DNA from: Deinococcales bacterium
GTDB lineage: Bacteria > Deinococcota > Deinococci > Deinococcales > JAAFIG01
Assembly: GCA_031414595.1 (NCBI GenBank)
Contig: JANNVX010000044.1
Location: 1-18,687, forward strand
Reading direction: 5' to 3'
DNA length: 18,687 nucleotides
Position numbers and translations under genes: made by a program
Notes under the pieces: model-generated
Seen by the model: only the letters and a program-made list of their open reading frames with translations
Databases searched by the model: none
Told to the model about the DNA's origin: nothing
Shown: in pieces, positions 11,123-18,687 of the stretch
How the letters are laid out: every line of letters starts with the position of its first letter
How positions within the stretch are numbered: position 1 is the stretch's first letter

Positions 11123-11324
11123 CACGAATCAAAAACATGGGCATAACCAAATCTTTTACACCAAGCGAACTCGAACGTACCTTCAAAGCCGAACTTCTGG
11201 CTCGAGACGCGGGGACTTTAAGCGCCAAGCGCGGGAAGCTCGAGGCAAAAGCCTGAGTAAATTAGGTTTGGAACTGGGCATCAGCAAAGGCAGGGTGCAT
11301 CAGCGTGAGCCGAAGCACTCGAGT
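11123..11324 (+). pseudogene. Eroded paralog of the HTH antitoxin at 12547-12918
   Basis: Aligns to the 12547-12918 gene (TPSELERTFKAELLAR..., RQAREARGKSLSKLG.ELGISKGRVHQRE) with a frameshift near 11220 and several internal deletions. Confidence 0.88.
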
Positions 11325-11376
11325 AAAGCGTGGTAAAATTTTGTGTGTTGCCCTGTGCTAAACGCCAAGGCTCGAG
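11325..11376 (+). repeat. 52-bp direct repeat, copy A
   Basis: AAAGCGTGGTAAAATTTTGTGTGTTGCCCTGTGCTAAACGCCAAGGCTCGAG. Confidence 0.9.
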
Positions 11377-11387
11377 CTAAAACAAAT

Positions 11388-11663
11388 TTACACCAAGCGA
11401 ATCTCGAGACGTTTACCAAGGGCAATCGCGGCTCGCTCGAGGGTTTGCAAAGTTGCACTTTGATTATTTGGATCGAGCAAACGGTCAAGGGCAGCACGAC
11501 TGGTATTCATGCGTTTAGCCAATTCAGTCTTACTGAGTTTCTTGGATTCTAAAGTTTCTAAAAGCTGATAAGCAATCACTCGTTTTATCGCTAAGGCTTC
11601 GGCATCAGCAAGAATACCTTCCTCGAGTAAAAAATCATCGAAATTACTGCCAATGTGTTTCAT
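11388..11663 (-). CDS. XRE-family HTH antitoxin (HigA-like)
   Basis: HIGSNFDDFL...KRVIAYQL...SKTELAKRMNTSRAALDRLLDP...TLQTLERAA; ATGA overlap with the upstream toxin. Confidence 0.9.
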   Translation of the reverse strand: MKHIGSNFDDFLLEEGILADAEALAIKRVIAYQLLETLESKKLSKTELAKRMNTSRAALDRLLDPNNQSATLQTLERAAIALGKRLEIRLV

Positions 11664-12028
11664 GGGTTCTCCAATAATTCTTTGAGGCGTTTACGAGCAA
11701 GCTCAAGGTCTGACTTTGGTGTTTTCTGGCTTTTTTTGATAAAAGCATGAAGCAGAATCATTTGGTTGTTCTGCACTGTAAAAATAGTTCTGGCAATCCC
11801 AGTGCTGATATGAGAGCGAACTTCCCATAAATCAGGCTCGAGTTTTCTGACCAAAGGCATTCCAATTGGATAAGCAAATTGCACGGTTTTAATATCTTCG
11901 CCAATGGTTCGGCGCATCTCGAGGCTTTGGGCTTTTAGCCAATCACGGACGGGTTCTTTATTGCTGCTTGTGTGATAAAAGAAAACCAGTAGGACAGGCT
12001 CGAGTTGAGGTCTGGGCTGGTTTAACAC
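11660..12028 (-). CDS. Type II TA toxin, RelE/ParE superfamily (Gp49/HigB-like)
   Basis: FY.T...EPVRDWLK...IGEDIKTVQ...PIGMPLVRKL..DLWEVRS...ILLHAFIKKSQKTP; extended -10 TGGTACACT 6 nt before the GTG. Confidence 0.92.
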   Translation of the reverse strand: MLNQPRPQLEPVLLVFFYHTSSNKEPVRDWLKAQSLEMRRTIGEDIKTVQFAYPIGMPLVRKLEPDLWEVRSHISTGIARTIFTVQNNQMILLHAFIKKSQKTPKSDLELARKRLKELLENP

Positions 12029-12079
12029 AATTAAAGTGTACCAAAAAAGATACGATTTGCCAAGGGAGCAACGCTCGAG

Positions 12080-12131
12080 AAAGCGTAATGGGATTTTGTG
12101 TGCAACCCTGTGCTAAATGCCAAGGCTCGAG
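12080..12131 (+). repeat. 52-bp direct repeat, copy B
   Basis: AAAGCGTAATGGGATTTTGTGTGCAACCCTGTGCTAAATGCCAAGGCTCGAG. Confidence 0.9.
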
Positions 12132-12146
12132 CCTTGGTGAACTTGC

Positions 12147-12175
12147 TTGACAATGATAATCGTCTAGTCTAAGCT
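12147..12175 (+). promoter_or_regulatory. Leaderless sigma70 promoter of the second TA operon
   Basis: TTGACA, 17 nt, TAAGCT, 6 nt, ATG (12182). Confidence 0.75.
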
Positions 12176-12181
12176 ATACTA

Positions 12182-12550
12182 ATGCGGCTATACCTTGCCC
12201 GACACCCAGACCAAATAACCAGCAAGCACCCACGAATCATTGAAGATATGCTTGAGCTTTGCGAACACCATCAGCTTGCTGTGAACGCCATGATTGGAAT
12301 GCTCGAAGATTTATTCGAGTTTGATCTCAAAACCAGATACGCTAAAAAGCTAATGGATTACCCGCTTTGGGAACTGAAAACCCGTTCTCGAGGCGGCGAA
12401 AAAGGCGGAGCAAGAGTCTATTTCTTTGTCGAAAACAACATTGCTTATATTTGCAATGCCGAAGTCAAAACAGGAAGCGAACCAAGCGAACACAAACTCG
12501 AAGAAGCCCTAGAAATTCTAGTCGCACATCGCGCTGGGAGGACAATATGA
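12182..12550 (+). CDS. Type II TA toxin, RelE/ParE superfamily (HigB-like)
   Basis: YAKKL...PLWELK...GGARVYFF RelE-like core; toxin-first order with an ATGA overlap to the HTH gene. Confidence 0.75.
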   Translation: MRLYLARHPDQITSKHPRIIEDMLELCEHHQLAVNAMIGMLEDLFEFDLKTRYAKKLMDYPLWELKTRSRGGEKGGARVYFFVENNIAYICNAEVKTGSEPSEHKLEEALEILVAHRAGRTI

Positions 12551-12918
12551 ACCCACGAATCAAAGCCATGCTCGAGACATTTACGCCCGAAGAAATCCGC
12601 ACTGGAATTCTTGAGAATAAACAAAGTAAAACAGTTCTAACAACCACACCAAGCGAACTCGAACGTACTTTCAAAGCTGAATTACTGGCTCGAAATGCTG
12701 GGGCATTACTACGCCAAGCGCGGGAAGCTCGAGGCAAAAGCCTGAGTAAATTAGGCTCGGAGCTTGGCATCAGCAAAGGCAGGGTGCATCAGCGCGAACA
12801 AGCCAGTGCGAACTTAGAAATCAAAACGATTCTCGAGCAAGCCGAAGCACTCGAGTACGAAGTTGAATTGGTGTTAAGACCAAAGCAAGGTGGGCAGGAA
12901 ATACGAGCGTTGCTGTAA
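12547..12918 (+). CDS. XRE-family HTH antitoxin
   Basis: Start revised to ATG 12547 (ATGA coupling, GGAGG Shine-Dalgarno). LRQAREARGKSLSKLGSELGISKGRVHQRE...NLEIKTI...AEAL HTH. Confidence 0.85.
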   Translation: MNPRIKAMLETFTPEEIRTGILENKQSKTVLTTTPSELERTFKAELLARNAGALLRQAREARGKSLSKLGSELGISKGRVHQREQASANLEIKTILEQAEALEYEVELVLRPKQGGQEIRALL

Positions 12919-12931
12919 AATGCGTTTCAGT

Positions 12932-12982
12932 AAAGCGTGATAGGATTTGTGTGTAGCCCTGTGCTAAACGCTAAGGCTCGAG
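12932..12982 (+). repeat. 52-bp direct repeat family, copy C (51 bp)
   Basis: AAAGCGTGATAGGATTTGTGTGTAGCCCTGTGCTAAACGCTAAGGCTCGAG. Confidence 0.9.
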
Positions 12983-13123
12983 GCAGATTGAATTTTGACC
13001 ACATTGCAATGTTTGATAAACTCTTCGACTTGCACATCTTAAACGTACCTCTACTTTTCAGCAAGATACTTGCAGACGTGTTAAAGTAACTGCAAAAGTT
13101 CTAAACCCATGGGAGTATGACTG

Positions 13124-14161
13124 GTGCAGCGACATACACATTTATATAATTTTGTTGAGATTCTTGTATTTTTCCTTGGGGCTGTTATAGTTTTCCTTCC
13201 CTTGGAATCAAAAACGCCCATCTCTGTGTTTCTGGGGACTACACTTGAAGACATTGGTACAGCCTTAGTAGCTGCCGCTCCTGTTAGTTGGGTCACTCGC
13301 AACTGGAAATTGCGAAGTCTTTACATAGGCATTGCGAGTCTCATTCCCTTCGTACTAGCAAATCTTATCTTATTTCCTAAAGATTTAGAAGCAATTAAAA
13401 AGATTCTAATTAATCTCGCGGGTGGATTGTTGCTTCTCGCAATTTATAACTTCATTTTGGATAAATTATTACTCAATGATGGAACACTGCGAATAAATGC
13501 CATTCAGCGACGAAGAATGGATGAACAGTACCGACAGATGAAAGTGGGAGCAAGGTATAAAATCTATATACTTGCTACAAGTCTCAATGATTCAATTAAC
13601 GATTTCCTTCGGGATACAAAATTATTTAAGAATATAACAGATTCAGATTTGTCCTTAGATATTAGATTGGTTTTTGTTAGTCCCAACTCTGAAGTTATTA
13701 AGGATAGAGCAAGAGAGGATGGTCGAAGTGAGTCAATTATCAAAGGAAGAATAAATTCTACAATAAAAAAATCAGTTCTTTTATATGACCGCATTATTAA
13801 ATTAATGGAGCAAGGAAAAAAAAGCAATTCAACTATCTCGGTAAAAATTACAAATGTTCACCCACTACATAGTTTGGTAATTATAGATGATAAACCTATC
13901 CATTGGACTGTTCATACGTTATCAAAAAATGAAACACTCGAATCTGTTATTTCTGTCCCACTCGATAATGACCCTGTGTATACGGATTTTTTGCGTCATT
14001 TTGATAGTGTTTGGTCTGATCCTTCAACAGTAAAAGTGTTTGAAATTGACCTAAAAAGTAAAGCCCATAAACTTGAGGAAGAATTACTAAATTCTTTGTA
14101 CTCGATTACTCCAAATTTTGACGGAAAATGGAGAAATACTGTTAAAAAATTCCCTGACTGA
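13124..14161 (+). CDS. Membrane protein (3-4 N-terminal TM helices) with DUF5919/PLD-like C-terminal domain
   Basis: Hydrophobic residues ~10-115. The C-terminus KIYILATSL...IRLVFVSPNS...RARED...SLVIIDD...FLRHFDSVW resembles DUF5919. GGAG Shine-Dalgarno 8 nt before the GTG; markedly AT-rich. Confidence 0.6.
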   Translation: MQRHTHLYNFVEILVFFLGAVIVFLPLESKTPISVFLGTTLEDIGTALVAAAPVSWVTRNWKLRSLYIGIASLIPFVLANLILFPKDLEAIKKILINLAGGLLLLAIYNFILDKLLLNDGTLRINAIQRRRMDEQYRQMKVGARYKIYILATSLNDSINDFLRDTKLFKNITDSDLSLDIRLVFVSPNSEVIKDRAREDGRSESIIKGRINSTIKKSVLLYDRIIKLMEQGKKSNSTISVKITNVHPLHSLVIIDDKPIHWTVHTLSKNETLESVISVPLDNDPVYTDFLRHFDSVWSDPSTVKVFEIDLKSKAHKLEEELLNSLYSITPNFDGKWRNTVKKFPD

Positions 14162-14181
14162 TATGAGTACGGAAAAATCTT

Positions 14182-15339
14182 ATGCTTAAATCTCTTTCTC
14201 TTTTCAGTGGTTGTGGCGGCTTGGATAGCGGTGTCTTCCAAGCTGGCTTCACGCCATTGGCTCTTGCCGAAATAGACCCTCATGCCACCAAAACCTTGTC
14301 GCATTGGCTCGAGCAAAAGGGCTTAAACATTCCTATTTTCTCGGATGTTACGCAACTAAATCCTTTTAGCCTACTCGAGCAACTGGGCTTACAAGTCGGT
14401 GAACTCGATTTGCTGTTGGGTGGTTCGCCCTGCCAGTCGTACAGCCTGATTGGTCAGCGTGCATCTCTCGAGGATGAGCGTGGGCAGTTACTCTTTGAAT
14501 TCGTGCGTTTGGCTCGAGTGCTACAACCCAAGGTAATTCTGATGGAGCAAGTTAAGGGTTTGCTTAGTGCGCCGGGCTTGGCTGGTGAGCGTGGTGGGGC
14601 GTTGGCGGTGCTGATGTCTAAACTCGAGGAGATTGGGTATACCGTGCGTTTTCAGGTTTTGAATACGGCTCATTTTGGTGTGCCGCAACTTCGGGAGCGC
14701 TTGTTTTTGGTGGCTGCTCAGGCTGCTTTTGTTTTTCCCGAACCCACCCATACCAGCAATGATTCACTCTTTGGTTTACCGCCATTTAGAACTGTTTGGG
14801 ATGCAATTGCCGATTTACCCGCACCAACGTTGAAGGGCGAACCTGAGCGCTTTCCAAATCACGTGGATGTTACCCCTGCTCGAGACCGTGAACGTATTTT
14901 TCATGTTCCTGAAGGTGATTTCTTGGCGCGGCAGTTTCATTTGCCCGAAGATATTCGTTGTAAGCTCAATCCCAAGAAGGACACCACAAAATTTAGGCGG
15001 TTGTCGCGTTTTCTGCCCAGTTTAACCTTGCGTGGTGGTGAATCGCCGTATCATCCGCTCGAGCCTCGGTACATTACGCCGCGTGAGTCTTTGCGTTTGC
15101 ATGGTTTTTTGGATGATCATATTTTAATTGCGCCAATTCGTGGGCGTTCTGGTACGTTCAATGGTTTAGACCAGCATCGTTTGGTGGCGAATGCTGTGCC
15201 GCCGCCACTTGCTTTTGCGCTTGCCAGTGCGATTAAAGCTCAATTTTTGACTGAATCTCGAGCAGAGGCGCTTTTCGCAGCATTGCCTTTAAGAGTTCCT
15301 TTTTTGGTGGAATCTTTTTCGGTAGCAAAATCCCTGTAA
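14182..15339 (+). CDS. DNA (cytosine-5)-methyltransferase
   Basis: Motif I LFSGCGG, IV GGSPCQ, VI MEQV (variant of ENV), VIII PQLRERLF, IX RYITPRE..RL.GF, X NAVPP. Confidence 0.93.
   Translation: MLKSLSLFSGCGGLDSGVFQAGFTPLALAEIDPHATKTLSHWLEQKGLNIPIFSDVTQLNPFSLLEQLGLQVGELDLLLGGSPCQSYSLIGQRASLEDERGQLLFEFVRLARVLQPKVILMEQVKGLLSAPGLAGERGGALAVLMSKLEEIGYTVRFQVLNTAHFGVPQLRERLFLVAAQAAFVFPEPTHTSNDSLFGLPPFRTVWDAIADLPAPTLKGEPERFPNHVDVTPARDRERIFHVPEGDFLARQFHLPEDIRCKLNPKKDTTKFRRLSRFLPSLTLRGGESPYHPLEPRYITPRESLRLHGFLDDHILIAPIRGRSGTFNGLDQHRLVANAVPPPLAFALASAIKAQFLTESRAEALFAALPLRVPFLVESFSVAKSL
14281..14316 (+). repeat. 36-bp direct repeat, copy inside the MTase gene
   Basis: CATGCCACCAAAACCTTGTCGCATTGGCTCGAGCAA; 34/36 identical to 16308-16343. 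Confidence 0.9.
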
Positions 15340-16288
15340 AAGTGGGGTTGCTGCCCGTAAACGATAGCCCTGCCTTGCCTGTGATGCGGCTAATCGTGCT
15401 GGTTTCGCCTGTGCTGCTGTCTATCGCAAAAATAATCAGGTGGATGTTGTTTTGTGTGCTGCTTTCTTGGTTTCCAATGGCTTGGCTCGAGAGTTGAGTA
15501 GTGGATTCGATTTCGCTCAGGAATTGGTCTTGGAGTAACCAGAAGGTTTTGCCGCCCCAGCTTTCGGCACAGGCAGATTTGGCAAAGAGTTGAGTTGCCA
15601 TGCGTCCCCAGACTTGGCGTTTGTTAATGCTGGGTGTGCTGTGTGGCAAGCCTAGAATAGCTTTTTTGAAAGCACTGGAAATATCTGTGCCTTTACTTTT
15701 GTTTGAGCCAGAGGTGCTGGCAGTCATGACCTCAAGAATTGCAAATGGCTCGAGAGTGGGAACTAAAACCATATTATTTATGGCTCGAATTCGCAGTTGT
15801 CTTTGTAAATCTGGTTCATCTGGGAAAATGGTTTTGATTTCCTCGAGCGTTAGCTTTTGCACTGGCGAGATGACATAATCAAAGTGATAGTTAAAACTGC
15901 TGTCCTCGTCGCGCATATTGATGACGACTTCTGCCCAAATGCCAAGCGGCACATCTGGCAAGTTCATTTGTTCTATGGCGGCTTGTTCGTGTGGCAATAA
16001 GTTTTTTTGGTCGTCACGGACAGCAAATAATCGTCTTGGGCAAACCAACCATGTTTCATCTTCGGATTGAATCGAACAAATTCCGGGTATCACTTGCTTG
16101 AGGTTAGGAAAATAATTTTGTAAGGCTTGGCTTTCGTTTTGTAAGGCAATCGTGGTTTGGTAACGATTTCCACCACCATCACAAGCTGTGTTGCTAAAAG
16201 GACAGTGTGCCTCATGACGTAATCTTTTGGCTTCGGCGGATTGGTCATGCAGTGGTCTGCCGAAAAGTTCAAAGATTTGTTTGGGCAT
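15233..16288 (-). CDS. NotI-family type II restriction endonuclease
   Basis: IFELFG start; four Cys of the NotI metal-binding module (CPF...C, GICSI, VCPRR); FDYV and ILEVMT PD-(D/E)xK-like core; adjacent to a C5 MTase. Start revised to ATG 16288 (TAAACT 5 nt upstream). Confidence 0.78.
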   Translation of the reverse strand: MPKQIFELFGRPLHDQSAEAKRLRHEAHCPFSNTACDGGGNRYQTTIALQNESQALQNYFPNLKQVIPGICSIQSEDETWLVCPRRLFAVRDDQKNLLPHEQAAIEQMNLPDVPLGIWAEVVINMRDEDSSFNYHFDYVISPVQKLTLEEIKTIFPDEPDLQRQLRIRAINNMVLVPTLEPFAILEVMTASTSGSNKSKGTDISSAFKKAILGLPHSTPSINKRQVWGRMATQLFAKSACAESWGGKTFWLLQDQFLSEIESTTQLSSQAIGNQESSTQNNIHLIIFAIDSSTGETSTISRITGKAGLSFTGSNPTFTGILLPKKIPPKKELLKAMLRKAPLLEIQSKIEL

Positions 16289-16307
16289 AGACCAGTTTAC
16301 ATTTTTC

Positions 16308-16343
16308 CATGCCACCAAAACCTTTTTGCATTGGCTCGAGCAA
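16308..16343 (+). repeat. 36-bp direct repeat, copy upstream of the REase gene
   Basis: CATGCCACCAAAACCTTTTTGCATTGGCTCGAGCAA. Confidence 0.9.
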
Positions 16344-16402: not shown

Positions 16403-17032
16403 TTAAACCCCGCCCAGCAGTGGAATATCTAACCCTCTTGCCTCGAGTTGCCCACAAATCCAGCCGAGGGCATACCTGTCTTCAATAAAGTCTAGCTCGT
16501 CACCCGGAATGGTAATGACGGGTGAGAGGCTGTACTCCCGCATGAATTGGCTGTAGAGGTCGTTCAAACCCACCAAGTACGCTTCGGGGATGCGCTGCTC
16601 GTAATCTCGTCCACGTCCAGCAATTCGTTTTTGTAGGGTTTTCAGACTGCATTTAATGTAAACCGTTAAAGTCGGAACACGAAGCGCGGGGGCAATCCCA
16701 GCATATAAATTTTGGTAGGTCTGCCAATCGCGGTCATCAATATGCCCTTGTTGCCGCAAATTGGTAGCAAAAATCGCCGCATCTTCAAATACGGTTCGGT
16801 CTTGAATCACCCGTGAACCTGTGTTGACTTCGCGTAAGTGCTGCTCGAGTCGTTTGCCCAAAAAAAAGACTTGTGAATGAAAAGCAAAACGCTTCATGTC
16901 CAAGTAAAAATCCTCGAGATACGGGTTTTCGTCCACCGCTTCAAAAATTGGCGTGAGCGCATAGCGTTCTGCCAGTAATTTGGTCAGGCTCGATTTGCCA
17001 CTTCCGATGTTTCCAGCAATTGCAATGTACAT
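16403..17032 (-). CDS. Deoxynucleoside kinase (dCK/dAK/dGK family)
   Basis: P-loop GNIGSGKS, ENPYLEDFY, QDRTVFED, RIAGRGR.YE. Confidence 0.93.
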   Translation of the reverse strand: MYIAIAGNIGSGKSSLTKLLAERYALTPIFEAVDENPYLEDFYLDMKRFAFHSQVFFLGKRLEQHLREVNTGSRVIQDRTVFEDAAIFATNLRQQGHIDDRDWQTYQNLYAGIAPALRVPTLTVYIKCSLKTLQKRIAGRGRDYEQRIPEAYLVGLNDLYSQFMREYSLSPVITIPGDELDFIEDRYALGWICGQLEARGLDIPLLGGV

Positions 17033-17038
17033 ATAATT

Positions 17039-17635
17039 TTACCTGCCTAGTACCTTTCGTACCTGCTCGAGAACCCGTTGTTGGTCAAATAAATTCTCGA
17101 CATAATCGTACTCGAGGGCTTCCAAGGTCAGGACGTTTCCAGTGTAGGAACGAAAATAGGCTTCGTAATGGGTATTTAGGGTTTTTAAGTAATTGGGGTC
17201 TATGTTCTTCTCAAACTCGCGTCCGCGTTTGGCGATTCGCTCGAGCAGCAAGGGCGTTTCGGCTCTTAGGTAAATAATCAGGTCTGGGATTCGCAATTGC
17301 GGTTTTAAGTGGTTGTAGAGGTCTTTGTAAAGCTCAAACTCGGCATCGCGTAAGTTCATGCTGGCAAAGATAAAATCTTTGTCAAATAAATAATCGGAGA
17401 CCACGGCTGCATCAAACAGGCTTTGTTGGGCTAAGCTGGAGAGTTGCTTAAACCGACTGAGTAGAAAAAATGTTTGCACATTAAAAGAAAAACGCTCTGG
17501 GTTTTCGTAAAAAGCTGCCAGAAAAGGATTTTCTTCAACCACTTCAAGATTCAAAGCCGCCGCAAATTCAGCCGCCAAGATACGACATAGACTGGTCTTA
17601 CCGACACCAATTGCACCTTCAACAACAATGTACAC
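17039..17635 (-). CDS. Deoxynucleoside kinase (dGK-like paralog)
   Basis: P-loop GAIGVGKT, EENPFL..FY, SDYLFDKD, RIAKRGREFE. Confidence 0.93.
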   Translation of the reverse strand: MYIVVEGAIGVGKTSLCRILAAEFAAALNLEVVEENPFLAAFYENPERFSFNVQTFFLLSRFKQLSSLAQQSLFDAAVVSDYLFDKDFIFASMNLRDAEFELYKDLYNHLKPQLRIPDLIIYLRAETPLLLERIAKRGREFEKNIDPNYLKTLNTHYEAYFRSYTGNVLTLEALEYDYVENLFDQQRVLEQVRKVLGR

Positions 17636-18101: not shown

Positions 18102-18548
18102 ATGCCATACCCAGCCAAAGAATACGCCGAAGCCTTTATCAAACACCGCCTACCCTTGCTGGCATTACTCGAGAGAATCCCAGTTGAACACAGTGGCTTT
18201 GCAATTCGTGAAGGCGCACTGAGTCTGCTCGAGATGGTCAATCATTTGTACTTAACCGATGTCTATTTACTAAGCGTCCTGAGTGGCGAGAAGTTTGTAC
18301 CACCCGCACCAGCCCCAGACTTAAGCAGTGCTTTGGTTGCCTTTAAGGTCAGTACGCCAAAAGTTCAAGCCTTTTTAGAGAATTTAAGTCCAGACCAACT
18401 CAGCCAAGACATCAAAGCCTTTGGTCAAACTTGGAAGGCGTACCGTTTAATCGAATTTGGACGCGAACACGAAGCCCACCATAAAGGACAACTGTGGTTC
18501 ATGGCTCGAGCCATAGGAATAGAACCCCCAATGTTCTATCAGTTCTAG
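18102..18548 (+). CDS. DinB/YfiT-family four-helix metalloprotein
   Basis: His triad (VNHL...EHEAHHKGQL). Start revised to ATG 18102 after a GGAG Shine-Dalgarno. Confidence 0.88.
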   Translation: MPYPAKEYAEAFIKHRLPLLALLERIPVEHSGFAIREGALSLLEMVNHLYLTDVYLLSVLSGEKFVPPAPAPDLSSALVAFKVSTPKVQAFLENLSPDQLSQDIKAFGQTWKAYRLIEFGREHEAHHKGQLWFMARAIGIEPPMFYQF

Positions 18549-18604
18549 GATTTGTCCGTAAATAACTTCCCTATTTGGAAATGATGAAACATTGTTTCCT
18601 AGCA

Positions 18605-18630
18605 GGACAGACACAGGGGTCTGTCCCTAC
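18605..18630 (-). repeat. GTAG-type REP element
   Basis: Minus strand GTAGGGACAGAC-CCCTGT-GTCTGTCC: a GTAG tetranucleotide followed by an imperfect hairpin. Confidence 0.8.
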
Positions 18631-18652
18631 AAAATCCATAAAAATACGTCAG

Positions 18653-18678
18653 GTAGGGGCGGACCCCCGTGTCCGCCC
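18653..18678 (+). repeat. GTAG-type REP element, inverted relative to the previous one
   Basis: GTAG-GGGCGGAC-CCCCGT-GTCCGCCC. Confidence 0.8.
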
Positions 18679-18687
18679 TGTGACCAA

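Follow-up and report, generated by a model that had tools for sequence, protein, structure and literature searches.

The window analysed here, 18,687 nucleotides long, is one whole contig of an uncultured Deinococcales genome and carries one CTCGAG per 193 bases (97 copies against 2.2 expected); genome-wide, this word occurs 23,235 times. Within the window lie three direct copies (A, B and C) of a 52-base repeat, termed R here, all of which end in CTCGAG. As described in the initial annotation, they give the order relic antitoxin, R, TA(-), R, TA(+), R, 345-aa membrane ORF. The CTCGAG reported in front of copies A and B is also found, at 11318-11323 and, directly 5' of copy B, at 12074-12079, copy A having one extra T at its start. 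Copy C is preceded by TTTCAG, which comparison with relatives shows to be a decayed CTCGAG. At copy B, the end of the repeat and its flank together form an 18-bp palindrome, CCAAGGCTCGAGCCTTGG, that is, CCAAGG-CTCGAG-CCTTGG. The extended -10 previously read in copies A and C is present in both. The features are collected in Table 1.

Table 1. Repeat copies and gene modules in the array region of the window.
Feature	Position	Strand	Remarks
Relic of TA(+) antitoxin gene	11158..11323	+	Decayed paralogue of 12646-12855, two internal deletions
Repeat copy A (R)	11324..11376	+	Extended -10 TGGTAAAAT at 11331-11339; terminal CTCGAG 11371-11376
TA(-) module	11388..12028	-	Gp49/HigB-like toxin 11660-12028; HTH_37 antitoxin 11388-11663
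TA(-) own promoter-like site	12035..12063	-	TTGGCA-17-TACACT with TG; 6 bases 5' of GTG start
Repeat copy B (R)	12080..12131	+	-10 degenerate (TAATGGGAT); terminal CTCGAG 12126-12131
TA(+) own promoter-like site	12147..12175	+	Putative, by eye; TTGACA-17-TAAGCT, 6 bases 5' of ATG at 12182
TA(+) module	12182..12918	+	Gp49-like toxin 12182-12550; HTH_3/XRE antitoxin 12547-12918
Repeat copy C (R)	12931..12982	+	Extended -10 TGATAGGAT; terminal CTCGAG 12977-12982
Foreign cassette	12983..14174	+	345-aa membrane ORF 13124-14161; GC 32-40% vs genome 47%
First 142 bases of C5 cytosine methylase gene (14182-15339)	14175..14316	+	

Both toxins match PF05973 Gp49 (9e-22 and 1.3e-4) and lie beside HTH_37 and HTH_3 proteins, with the stop and start codons of toxin and antitoxin genes overlapping. 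Judged from sequence, these neighbouring genes, in each case for a small toxin and a DNA-binding antitoxin from known families, classify as predicted type II toxin-antitoxin modules. The spacing between the TA(-) promoter-like site and its start codon suggests a leaderless mRNA, and a promoter scan gives a weaker site overlapping the one placed in front of TA(+). In the relic antitoxin, of which 11158-11308 matches 12646-12797 at 89-94%, the second internal deletion puts CTCGAG straight against R. The foreign cassette has its own TTGACC-16-TAAACT site, and CTCGAG is absent from 12983 to 14307; a search for homologues of its membrane ORF returned only the ORF itself among 5,386 candidates. The 142-base methylase start closes every array of the genus, being intact only in the window and a truncated relic in all others examined. 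A 36-base direct repeat (14281-14316 and 16308-16343) was considered as the mark of a deletion behind these methylase stubs and rejected, as the DNA following the stub in the closest relative (G005) and on contig C70 of the window's own genome (G000) is unlike the window after 16343. The ends of the window alone match dozens of contigs and belong to a MITE-like family.

R recurs in six of the seven other genomes of the genus, giving 28 copies in seven of eight genomes (2 to 6 per genome), all of them within islands of toxin-antitoxin and defence modules. A whole-genome nhmmer search of G000 found six copies, together with one that a MITE interrupts, and places all of them in two islands. The copies are spaced 590-2500 bases apart with genes between them, share one orientation within an array, and are about equally diverged in every context (identity 0.82-0.88); the arrays comprise 2-5 modules and adjoin housekeeping genes. 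Among 11 genomes from four other genera of the family there was no strong match, with four partial matches (E 0.0013-0.004) in three of them, and a 37-base pattern allowing up to three mismatches found no copy in 33 genomes outside the genus. A 26-base degenerate core pattern likewise had no match in public metagenome contigs or public viral contigs, and blastn found none in 72,556 plasmid records or in phage sequences. A single metagenome contig recovered with a looser 21-base pattern was dismissed as a chance match, the contig lacking any CTCGAG. The window has no Rfam match at the gathering score (11200-13150 has none even at E up to 1) and no tRNA.

The cargo of the arrays, as classified with Pfam and PADLOC, includes Gp49/HigB-HTH, XisH-XisI, Uma2, PIN/VapBC and DUF433-DUF5615 modules, an NsnB-like AAA_15 ATPase and an N6 methylase-GmrSD-HEPN module. 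R adjoins a variety of sequences, at least 12 on its downstream side and at least 8 upstream, always at the same base, and the upstream genes stop 0-14 bases before it; the stop codon of XisI is the TAA of R itself. Module content differs at orthologous loci, which, together with the varied flanks, bears out the earlier proposal that R marks the junctions in a cassette-like array. Set against the window's TA(+), R, membrane ORF and methylase, G005 has TA(+), R, Uma2, R, AAA_15-p178 and the methylase stub, and similarity between the two ends exactly at 12982 and restarts at 14175. The window's TA(-), R, TA(+) corresponds in G004 to TA(-), R, Uma2, R, TA(+), while contig C70 of G000 carries TA(+), R, XisHI, R, AAA_15, with Uma2 filling the middle slot in G005. 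In one contig from another population the TA(-) cassette is missing between R and TA(+) (joint 11382 to 12146). The slot beside the methylase stub is the most variable, and the breakpoints between species fall at the ends of R, the initial annotation having proposed such mapping between strains. The cassette architecture is real and is not local duplication.

Variation within R follows the modules to some extent. Variants linked to XisH and to TA(+) show that the linker goes as a whole with the module that follows it, in three different upstream contexts. Among the copies compared there was no clear mosaic with an internal switch point, and the two halves of R show only a weak linkage signal with their neighbouring modules (right half 0.91 vs 0.86). 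In G003 all three full copies read AATG where copies elsewhere read AAGG, which is taken as gene conversion. The 3' tails of the modules were also considered as remnants of R, and this was rejected since local alignments scored as shuffles did (8 tails, p 0.17-0.6).

The terminal CTCGAG is exact in 20 of the 28 copies, across the seven genomes, and the same word stands directly 5' of R in 12, with 11 more only 1-3 changes away from it. This is not chance even at the genomic density of CTCGAG, although it had been anticipated that density alone might account for such ends. Other repeats in G000 do not share the feature: among 3,999 internal segment ends, 16 and 28 fall at a CTCGAG edge vs 19.7 and 20.7 expected, so the word has no general enrichment at repeat ends. 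Alignment of G000 with 20 contigs of G005 (57 kb, ~93% identity) yielded only seven indels of at least 5 bases, too few for a junction test. Three other genera of the family, which array the same module families with different linkers, have linker repeats of their own with CTCGAG 0-8 bases from the right end. One of these, the linker of genus g2, has five copies in 3 kb in G008 and three in G012, is uniform within its genus, is unlike R as judged by eye, and was not found in 17 other genomes of the family. The association with CTCGAG holds for four mutually unrelated linker repeats in four genera, and thereby connects the arrays with the family's excess of this palindrome, itself unexplained. 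Of the earlier suggestion that CTCGAG is the crossover point, the association with linker ends therefore stands, in four genera, and it is this association that would make a role in crossover plausible.

The description of R as promoter-bearing agrees with a promoter-like extended -10 in its left half. Of the 28 copies, 16 have TGnTAnnnT and 20 have TAnnnT at that position; where a co-oriented module follows, 15 of 16 copies retain the box, vs 4 of 9 before TA(+) or convergent ones (Fisher p 0.012, the copies not being independent), a pattern consistent with use. In a rearranged copy in G007 the core of R is gone and TGGTAGAAT is retained, about 20 bases 5' of the ribosome site of Uma2, a gene with no other promoter within the 22 bases that follow R. 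The g2 linker has no obvious promoter by eye, indicating that a promoter is not the common denominator of such linkers.

The reading we tentatively favour, with somewhat less than even confidence, is that R links modules and carries a promoter, and that general recombination between its copies allows the modules to be exchanged. According to this model, R would be a genus-specific linker separating modules within toxin-antitoxin and defence islands, with its left half acting as an outward-facing extended -10 promoter (TGnTAnnnT) able to drive the next module. This promoter would be retained where the next module lacks its own and would decay where it is not needed, and the right 30 bases may serve as an operator or leader. 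Since every module is flanked by this one linker, the modules behave as cassettes, which could be lost, duplicated, or swapped between arrays and species. The mover would be general RecA-type recombination together with gene conversion between linker copies, with the methylase 5' stub as a right-hand anchor for recombination and with DNA taken up from relatives probably one source of modules. The CTCGAG at both ends of the linker would mark favoured joining points, possibly since it is the commonest word shared by unrelated DNA in the genome; alternatively, it may itself stimulate recombination, as has been proposed for cyanobacterial HIP1. Counting against general recombination, however, exchange between existing copies makes no new linker-module junctions, and the variety of sequences that R meets at the same base implies that some precise joining process acted, at least at the origin. 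On sequence comparison, the equal divergence of the copies looks like one installation burst near the base of the genus, not steady homogenisation.

A first alternative is a dedicated site-specific system, in which R is the site for a recombinase encoded elsewhere, for example the conserved Xer-like tyrosine recombinase, with exchange in the terminal CTCGAG; a module would be cut out and put back together with its linker, as integron cassettes and Acinetobacter dif modules are. We regard this as unlikely, although the base-precise ends of R against many flanks, the ending of upstream genes at or close to the linker, the linkage of whole-linker variants to the downstream module, and the layout of the copy B palindrome as two inverted arms around a 6-base overlap would all fit it. 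So would the confinement of linkers to arrays and their genus specificity, the g2 linker being different but internally uniform. In sedentary chromosomal integrons, attC sites are described as uniform within species. Against it, no recombinase was found on the three array-bearing contigs of G000 (C44, C70 and C111), where Pfam searches of flanking ORFs gave no intI, nor near the arrays of G013, G006 and G003, including within 228 kb of them in the complete genome G013. The PF00589 matches in G000 lie on contigs C9, C88, C29, C58 and C57, no serine recombinase was found in that genome, and the sole detectable tyrosine recombinase of G006 is on a different contig from its array. R also lacks the structure expected of such a site. 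Folding of eight DNA strands gave z of -2.46 to +0.25, with only copy B standing out, owing to its flank, and the 18-bp palindrome occurs in just three of the 28 copies. The imperfect hairpin described in the initial annotation has a stem of only 3-4 bp and a folding energy like that of shuffles (z -1.0 to +0.25, copy B excepted). End-to-end pairing of R (11 pairs) has no compensatory changes and equals shuffles, so that hairpin or attC-like pairing is rejected; by eye, only the outer TTTnG/CnAAA bases of the consensus pair, with no internal dyad symmetry. Readings of the core as dif-like or RDRM-like were rejected by eye as well.

Nor did contigs from four runs contain a circle or excision joint, rare excision products not being visible in contigs. 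An apparent joint that goes back 1642 bases (12969 to 11328) has base changes that identify it as the paralogous copy on C70, and the copies on C70 and C111 account for loose contig ends at 11376 and 12131. The dedicated insertion and excision proposed at the outset is thus not borne out, in recombinase, site structure or excision product.

A second alternative, also rather improbable in our assessment, is that R is a very small mobile repeat which inserts into CTCGAG, regenerates the word on both sides and colonised the spacers of a pre-existing array, later shuffling being ordinary recombination. The layout CTCGAG, 46 bases, CTCGAG, with short terminal inverted matches (CTCGAG plus GCGT/ACGC), is consistent with this, although CTCGAG is itself palindromic and can therefore pass for either an inverted end or a duplicated target. 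The equidistant copies, as after a burst, and the arraying of the same module families with other linkers in other genera fit as well, and a precedent is offered by SDR5 within HIP1, as described by Elhai (2015, PMC4390886). However, the few copies per genome are all in defence and toxin-antitoxin islands despite the thousands of CTCGAG targets available, whereas the true MITE-like family in G000 has spread across many contigs, one of its copies giving 29 matches. Moreover, no empty site, with two modules joined by a lone CTCGAG, was found, and R and the g2 linker, though unrelated, would both have had to pick the same type of spacer.

On a broader and equally doubtful view, there is an integrase-less cassette system across a whole family within the Deinococcales, in which modules are captured, excised and reshuffled at lineage-specific linkers with exchange at CTCGAG. 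The mover could then be a trans-acting host enzyme, such as an Xer-like recombinase, or one of the numerous array-borne PD-(D/E)XK nucleases (Uma2, XisH).

Much less probable is that R is above all a shared regulatory element, either a common promoter and operator or an RNA leader or processing site, with one regulator for the island and shuffling as a by-product. The conservation of R would suit such a role: 22 nearly invariant columns lie almost entirely in its right two thirds, the 30 bases 3' of the -10 are its best-conserved part, and the core contains, by eye, a direct repeat TGTGC-N5-TGTGC one helical turn apart. Partial copies whose left end has been replaced keep the core and a -10-like hexamer, and HTH antitoxins constantly accompany the arrays. 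However, regulation explains neither the sharp ends nor copies that look towards the 3' end of a convergent module (nine copies face TA(+) or convergent modules), and neither an Rfam match, a structure nor a regulator was identified. Local tandem duplication and decay of one toxin-antitoxin unit with its 3' flank, finally, is refuted: although one antitoxin sequence precedes both A and C, unrelated modules border copy B and the majority of copies in relatives, and across seven genomes the 28 copies are found with at least 10 kinds of cargo.

Comparison with known systems shows that the R arrays are not integrons, dif modules or ordinary MITEs. The initial exclusion of integron attC, CRISPR and IS ends agrees with the folding, pairing and plasmid and phage searches. 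CRISPR repeats of 21-48 bases alternate with short non-coding spacers of similar length, whereas the spacings of R hold genes; MITEs and other small dispersed repeats have many copies in unrelated intergenic sites, and R is not so dispersed. Like sedentary chromosomal integrons, the arrays place a lineage-specific direct repeat after each small module and vary in content among relatives; they include toxin-antitoxin modules that have promoters (here promoter-like sites) of their own and in part lie on the opposite strand, and their genes end at the repeat. However, they have no adjacent integrase or attI, and integron arrays comprise tens to hundreds of modules. An attC site folds as inverted repeats with GTTRRRY at the crossover, while R has neither, ends in GGCTCGAG and itself carries a promoter-like box. 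Acinetobacter dif (pdif) modules are similarly discrete, often toxin-antitoxin, bounded by short conserved sites and shuffled among replicons without a recombinase of their own, being moved by XerC/XerD (PMC13141974, PMC6449649). Each pdif site, however, spans 28 bp, with a 6-base spacer flanked by inverted arms of 11 bp, and the sites alternate in orientation and lie on plasmids, whereas R has 52 bases and no dyad, is always direct, and is probably chromosomal, in arrays beside housekeeping genes. Integron and Acinetobacter dif arrays each need a defined recombinase as well as a site that is symmetric or folded; the R arrays present the same architecture in another phylum, without a linked recombinase and with an unstructured linker bearing a promoter-like box. 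In this sense, the cassette-accretion system first proposed stands as an architecture and is unproven as a mechanism.

The closest parallel for the palindrome is HIP1 (GCGATCGC) and SDR5 of cyanobacteria, where a hyper-abundant palindrome also marks the ends of small repeats. Elhai (2015, PMC4390886) places the insertion of SDR5 exactly after the third base of HIP1 and before the fourth. Links of HIP1 with excision, with recombination of the site-specific or illegitimate kind, and with better transformation and recombination have also been described (PMC4390886; Kamoku and Nielsen, bioRxiv 10.1101/2024.09.10.611283). R differs in its phylum and its word, in being low-copy and confined to toxin-antitoxin and defence arrays, and in that no methylase or nuclease for CTCGAG is tied to it. 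The function of cyanobacterial HIP1 is presented in PMC5861425 and PMC13756078 as a question open for decades. If CTCGAG is the joining point, a highly iterated palindrome would gain a directly testable function, and under the integrase-less reading it would act universally in modular gene exchange, as the place of joining or as a stimulus to recombination.

Reused or 'mobile' promoters (PMC3575422) share with R the placing of one intergenic sequence, with a promoter or, in R, a promoter-like box, before many non-homologous genes, whereas R has base-precise ends on both sides, occurs also at the 3' ends of convergent modules, and belongs to one type of island. Defence islands and hotspots, in turn, carry comparable cargo (NsnA/NsnB-like, GmrSD, HEPN, methylases and toxin-antitoxin modules) and similarly have one slot that is most variable, but the exchange units of the R arrays are bounded by an internal short repeat instead of core genes or prophage ends. 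Even if only recombination between shared promoters were at work, they would clearly illustrate how defence islands keep their modularity.

R, the 52-base linker repeat, occurs three times in the window in direct orientation with CTCGAG at each right end, as the initial annotation had stated; the CTCGAG placed directly before copies A and B is also there, as is the order of genes, from a relic antitoxin through A, TA(-), B, TA(+) and C to a membrane gene. Comparison with further copies that follow the TA(+) antitoxin gene shows the hexamer before copy C to be a decayed CTCGAG. The source genome, G000 (4.49 Mb, 94% complete, G+C 47.2%; the window is its entire contig C44), holds 23,235 CTCGAG sites, one per 193 bases, and the window 97 against 2.2 expected from shuffles. 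A full-text literature search for 'highly iterated palindrome' with CTCGAG returned no paper.

Features of the array in the window
Feature	Position	Strand	Remarks
Antitoxin relic (HTH)	11158-11323		paralogue of 12646-12855, carries two deletions
R copy A	11324-11376	+	preceded by CTCGAG, ends in CTCGAG
TA(-)	between A and B	-	Gp49/HigB-like toxin with HTH_37 antitoxin
R copy B	12080-12131	+	preceded by CTCGAG, ends in CTCGAG
TA(+)	between B and C	+	second Gp49-like toxin with HTH_3 antitoxin
R copy C	12931-12982	+	preceded by TTTCAG, ends in CTCGAG
Membrane ORF, 345 aa	right of C

A profile of the R copies found three more in G000 (C70:1855-1896, C70:2661-2712 and C111:22523-22570) and a seventh, degenerate copy on C70 that is split by a MITE of ~196 bases; this MITE-like insertion (C70, ~806-1001) lies upstream of a TA(+) module. 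The window itself has high-copy repeats at both ends (1-141 and 18546-18687), of a kind present at many contig ends; one is a MITE-like element of ~196 bases with G+C-rich hairpins, and the insertion in the degenerate R of C70 is a copy of it. A 37-base pattern of R, with up to three mismatches, matched in six of the seven other genomes of the genus and had no match in 33 genomes drawn from other genera, other families and the order. Strong matches to a sequence-only covariance model were confined to the genus among 19 family genomes, with four partial matches outside it (E 0.0013-0.004), and nothing R-like appeared in metagenome, viral, plasmid or phage collections. The loci compared gave 28 copies in seven genomes of the genus (G000 six, G001 three, G003 four, G004 six, G005 five, G006 two, G007 two); G002 (82% complete) has no copy. 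With varied cargo between these copies, the possibility that the repeat occurs only here with invariant cargo fails.

At one and the same base, R is joined to no fewer than 12 different sequences downstream and no fewer than eight upstream. The right end is an exact CTCGAG in 20 of the 28 copies, and three more are the XisH junction, which an 8-base deletion has produced from a full copy; CTCGAG stands directly before R in 12 copies and a version with one to three changes before 11 more. The upstream gene stops 0-14 bases from R, and one XisI gene stops at the TAA that begins R, which is all that a deletion in G001 retains. Since the ends of other repeated segments of G000 are not enriched at CTCGAG, the coincidence at the ends of R does not come from density or the aligner, and the possibility that breakpoints favour the hexamer no more than its density predicts does not hold.

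Arrays in the genus. a, TA(+); b, TA(-), inverted; u, Uma2; x, XisH-XisI; v, VapBC, inverted; d, DUF433-DUF5615; e, membrane ORF; k, AAA_15 ATPase (NsnB-like) and 178-aa protein; m, N6 methylase-GmrSD(NsnA-like)-HEPN; stub, methylase stub
Locus	Order
Window	ABC permease, a-relic, R, b, R, a, R, e, C5 methylase
G005:C678	ABC permease, a-relic, R, b, R, a (contig end)
G005:C334	a, R, u, R, k, stub
G000:C70	degenerate R, a, R, x, R, k, stub, SpoIID
G000:C111	BCS1-like ATPase, R, v
G004:C106	x', R, b-relic, R, u, R, a, R, k', stub
G003:C40	LeuA, a-relic, partial R, d, b-relic, R, v, R, x'', R, m, stub, SpoIID
G006:C66	u, R, x, R, m, stub
G007:C142	GlnA, x', rearranged R, u, partial R, x'', R, x
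G001:C490	partial R, x', a-antitoxin, R, 275-aa ORF

The arrays thus hold shared modules in varying order and with varying neighbours (C111 probably runs into C70, judging from two PIN-gene halves). Order and content vary between species with R at the boundaries, which supports the architectural part of the original cassette reading; the mechanism that moves modules is offered as a proposal only. A single module with one R is present or missing between genomes (b, R, u, R, a in G004 against b, R, a in the window), and the slot from the last R to the methylase gene is filled by e, k, k' or m. Between the window and G005, its closest relative (~93-97% identity), similarity ends precisely at 12982 and picks up at 14175. 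The segment between (12983-14174) has a G+C of 32-40% and CTCGAG is absent over 1.3 kb, so that it is foreign DNA of recent acquisition; the protein search found no homologue of its membrane ORF. Contigs from other populations include two runs (X5 and X6) in which the b toxin is deleted and one contig with R followed by module a without b. This deletion, also present in G003 and G004, removes the TA(-) toxin gene precisely (11666 to 12034 in the window) and leaves an orphan antitoxin flanked by two R copies.

At their right end the arrays carry the opening 142 bases of the C5 methylase gene (14175-14316) at 86-97% identity; this stretch is present in five of the seven other genomes of the genus and in no genome from another genus. 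The gene is complete in the window only, other arrays having the stub. A 36-base direct repeat (14281-14316 and 16308-16343, 94% identical) encloses most of the gene and a convergent 361-aa ORF (15233-16318), which has no Pfam or PADLOC match and is possibly the nuclease partner. Recombination between the 36-base repeats as the source of the relatives' stubs was not borne out. Beyond the island (16403-17635) lie two adjoining genes for deoxynucleoside kinases, of 209 and 198 aa, and a gene of the DinB family, all ordinary in appearance. The left end (3-2827) carries another defence pair, a DUF4276 protein (PADLOC HEC-01B, 4e-84) and then a UvrD-type helicase (weak HigB-like N-terminus, C3a187/GajB-like), whose ATPase partner would fall past the contig end.

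Tentatively, and with somewhat less than even confidence, we read R as a promoter-bearing linker shuffled by general recombination. Recombination between R copies would produce the losses, duplications and swaps seen and would require no special enzyme; an AATG variant common to the three full copies of G003 fits such exchange. Divergence among the copies is much the same in every context, as if R had spread in a single burst early in the history of the genus. As recombination explains neither this equal divergence nor the abutment of R on many modules at one base, a precise joining process is required, at least for the origin. An enzyme encoded elsewhere might have carried out exchange at CTCGAG, a tiny element might have inserted into the word, as one study reports for SDR5 in HIP1 (Elhai 2015, PMC4390886), or the process might have been illegitimate joining through the commonest shared word.

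Precise joining could also be the work of a site-specific cassette system acting at R, which we consider unlikely. The co-occurring recombinase sought by the initial annotation is missing from C44, C70 and C111; the five full-length tyrosine recombinase genes of G000 all lie on contigs other than those of the arrays, a short fragment on C57 is below the family cut-off with two internal stops, and the genome has no serine recombinase. In the complete genome G013, 228 kb separate the array from the nearest tyrosine recombinase, and the single one in G006 is on a different contig. R has no internal dyad symmetry, no matching Rfam family and zero compensatory change in the pairing of its two ends; it folds no better than shuffles save for copy B, where the flank completes CCAAGGCTCGAGCCTTGG. 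Of the 19 family genomes, 15 have several copies of the XisH-XisI pair (maximum 10 per genome), and since G000 is without an XisF-type serine recombinase these pairs do not act here as excision factors for an fdxN-like element. A repeat so often framed by CTCGAG might instead be a small mobile one that targets it, a reading to which we give equally little credence: R numbers two to six copies per genome, every one inside islands, whereas a true MITE-like family of G000 is spread over dozens of contigs.

The extended -10 claimed for R is upheld by TGnTAnnnT in the left half of 16 of the 28 copies, with TAnnnT at the equal place in 20, and variation falls on positions that such a box tolerates; the left half is a predicted promoter of this type. 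The box is retained in 15 of 16 copies ahead of a co-oriented module, gone in two of six facing a convergent module, and gone in all three counted copies ahead of module a, which has a putative TTGACA-17-TAAGCT of its own, placed for a leaderless mRNA (p 0.012 for the contrast in retention; the copies are not independent). After R, Uma2 has just 22 bases and a ribosome site, and the rearranged R of G007 has lost its core and kept TGGTAGAAT ~20 bases ahead of that site. That R is mainly a regulatory element strikes us as improbable. Conservation along R is highest in the 30 bases that follow the box. Plain duplication is very improbable. The paralogy of the relic means that A and C partly reflect duplication, and copy B is not accounted for by it. 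The TA(-) antitoxin gene has the 12-mer ACACCAAGCGAA at its 3' end (11390-11401); the 12-mer is found again inside the TA(+) antitoxin gene (12646-12657) and where the relic starts (11158-11169), and may be microhomology used in truncating the relic.

The family was searched with the R-linked XisH protein and short repeats were sought in the 27 loci outside the R arrays. Genus g2 has a repeat of 55-65 bases that is, by eye, unrelated to R; five direct copies of it, spaced 583-818 bases apart (G008:C257, 424-3282), separate Uma2, HigB-HTH, a DUF4258-like pair and XisI-XisH, with HEPN and GmrSD following. This linker, with no obvious promoter by eye, has three copies in the other g2 genome (G012, C805 and C664), and so is in both g2 genomes, and in 0 of 17 other family genomes. 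Perfect direct pairs flank XisH-XisI behind a Phd/ParE pair in genus g5 (32 bases; G011:C5, 5532-5563 and 6419-6450) and XisH-XisI-XisI in g3 (26 bases; G013:C1, 5046-5071 and 6745-6770). In all four linker kinds CTCGAG lies 0-8 bases from the right end, with a chance of ~5% for each at one site per 193 bases. The R arrangement extends to the genus and, in kind, to the family.

Integron, dif module, CRISPR and ordinary MITE each fail on defining features, in line with the earlier statement that R fits neither integron attC nor CRISPR. In its available portions, the literature on TA cassettes with direct-repeat flanks, dif modules, mobile promoters and Deinococcus small repeats does not describe the R arrangement. 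A preprint reports that cyanobacterial HIP1 makes transformation and recombination more efficient in the manner of Chi (bioRxiv 10.1101/2024.09.10.611283), and by analogy it is not far-fetched that CTCGAG at the linker ends stimulates recombination.
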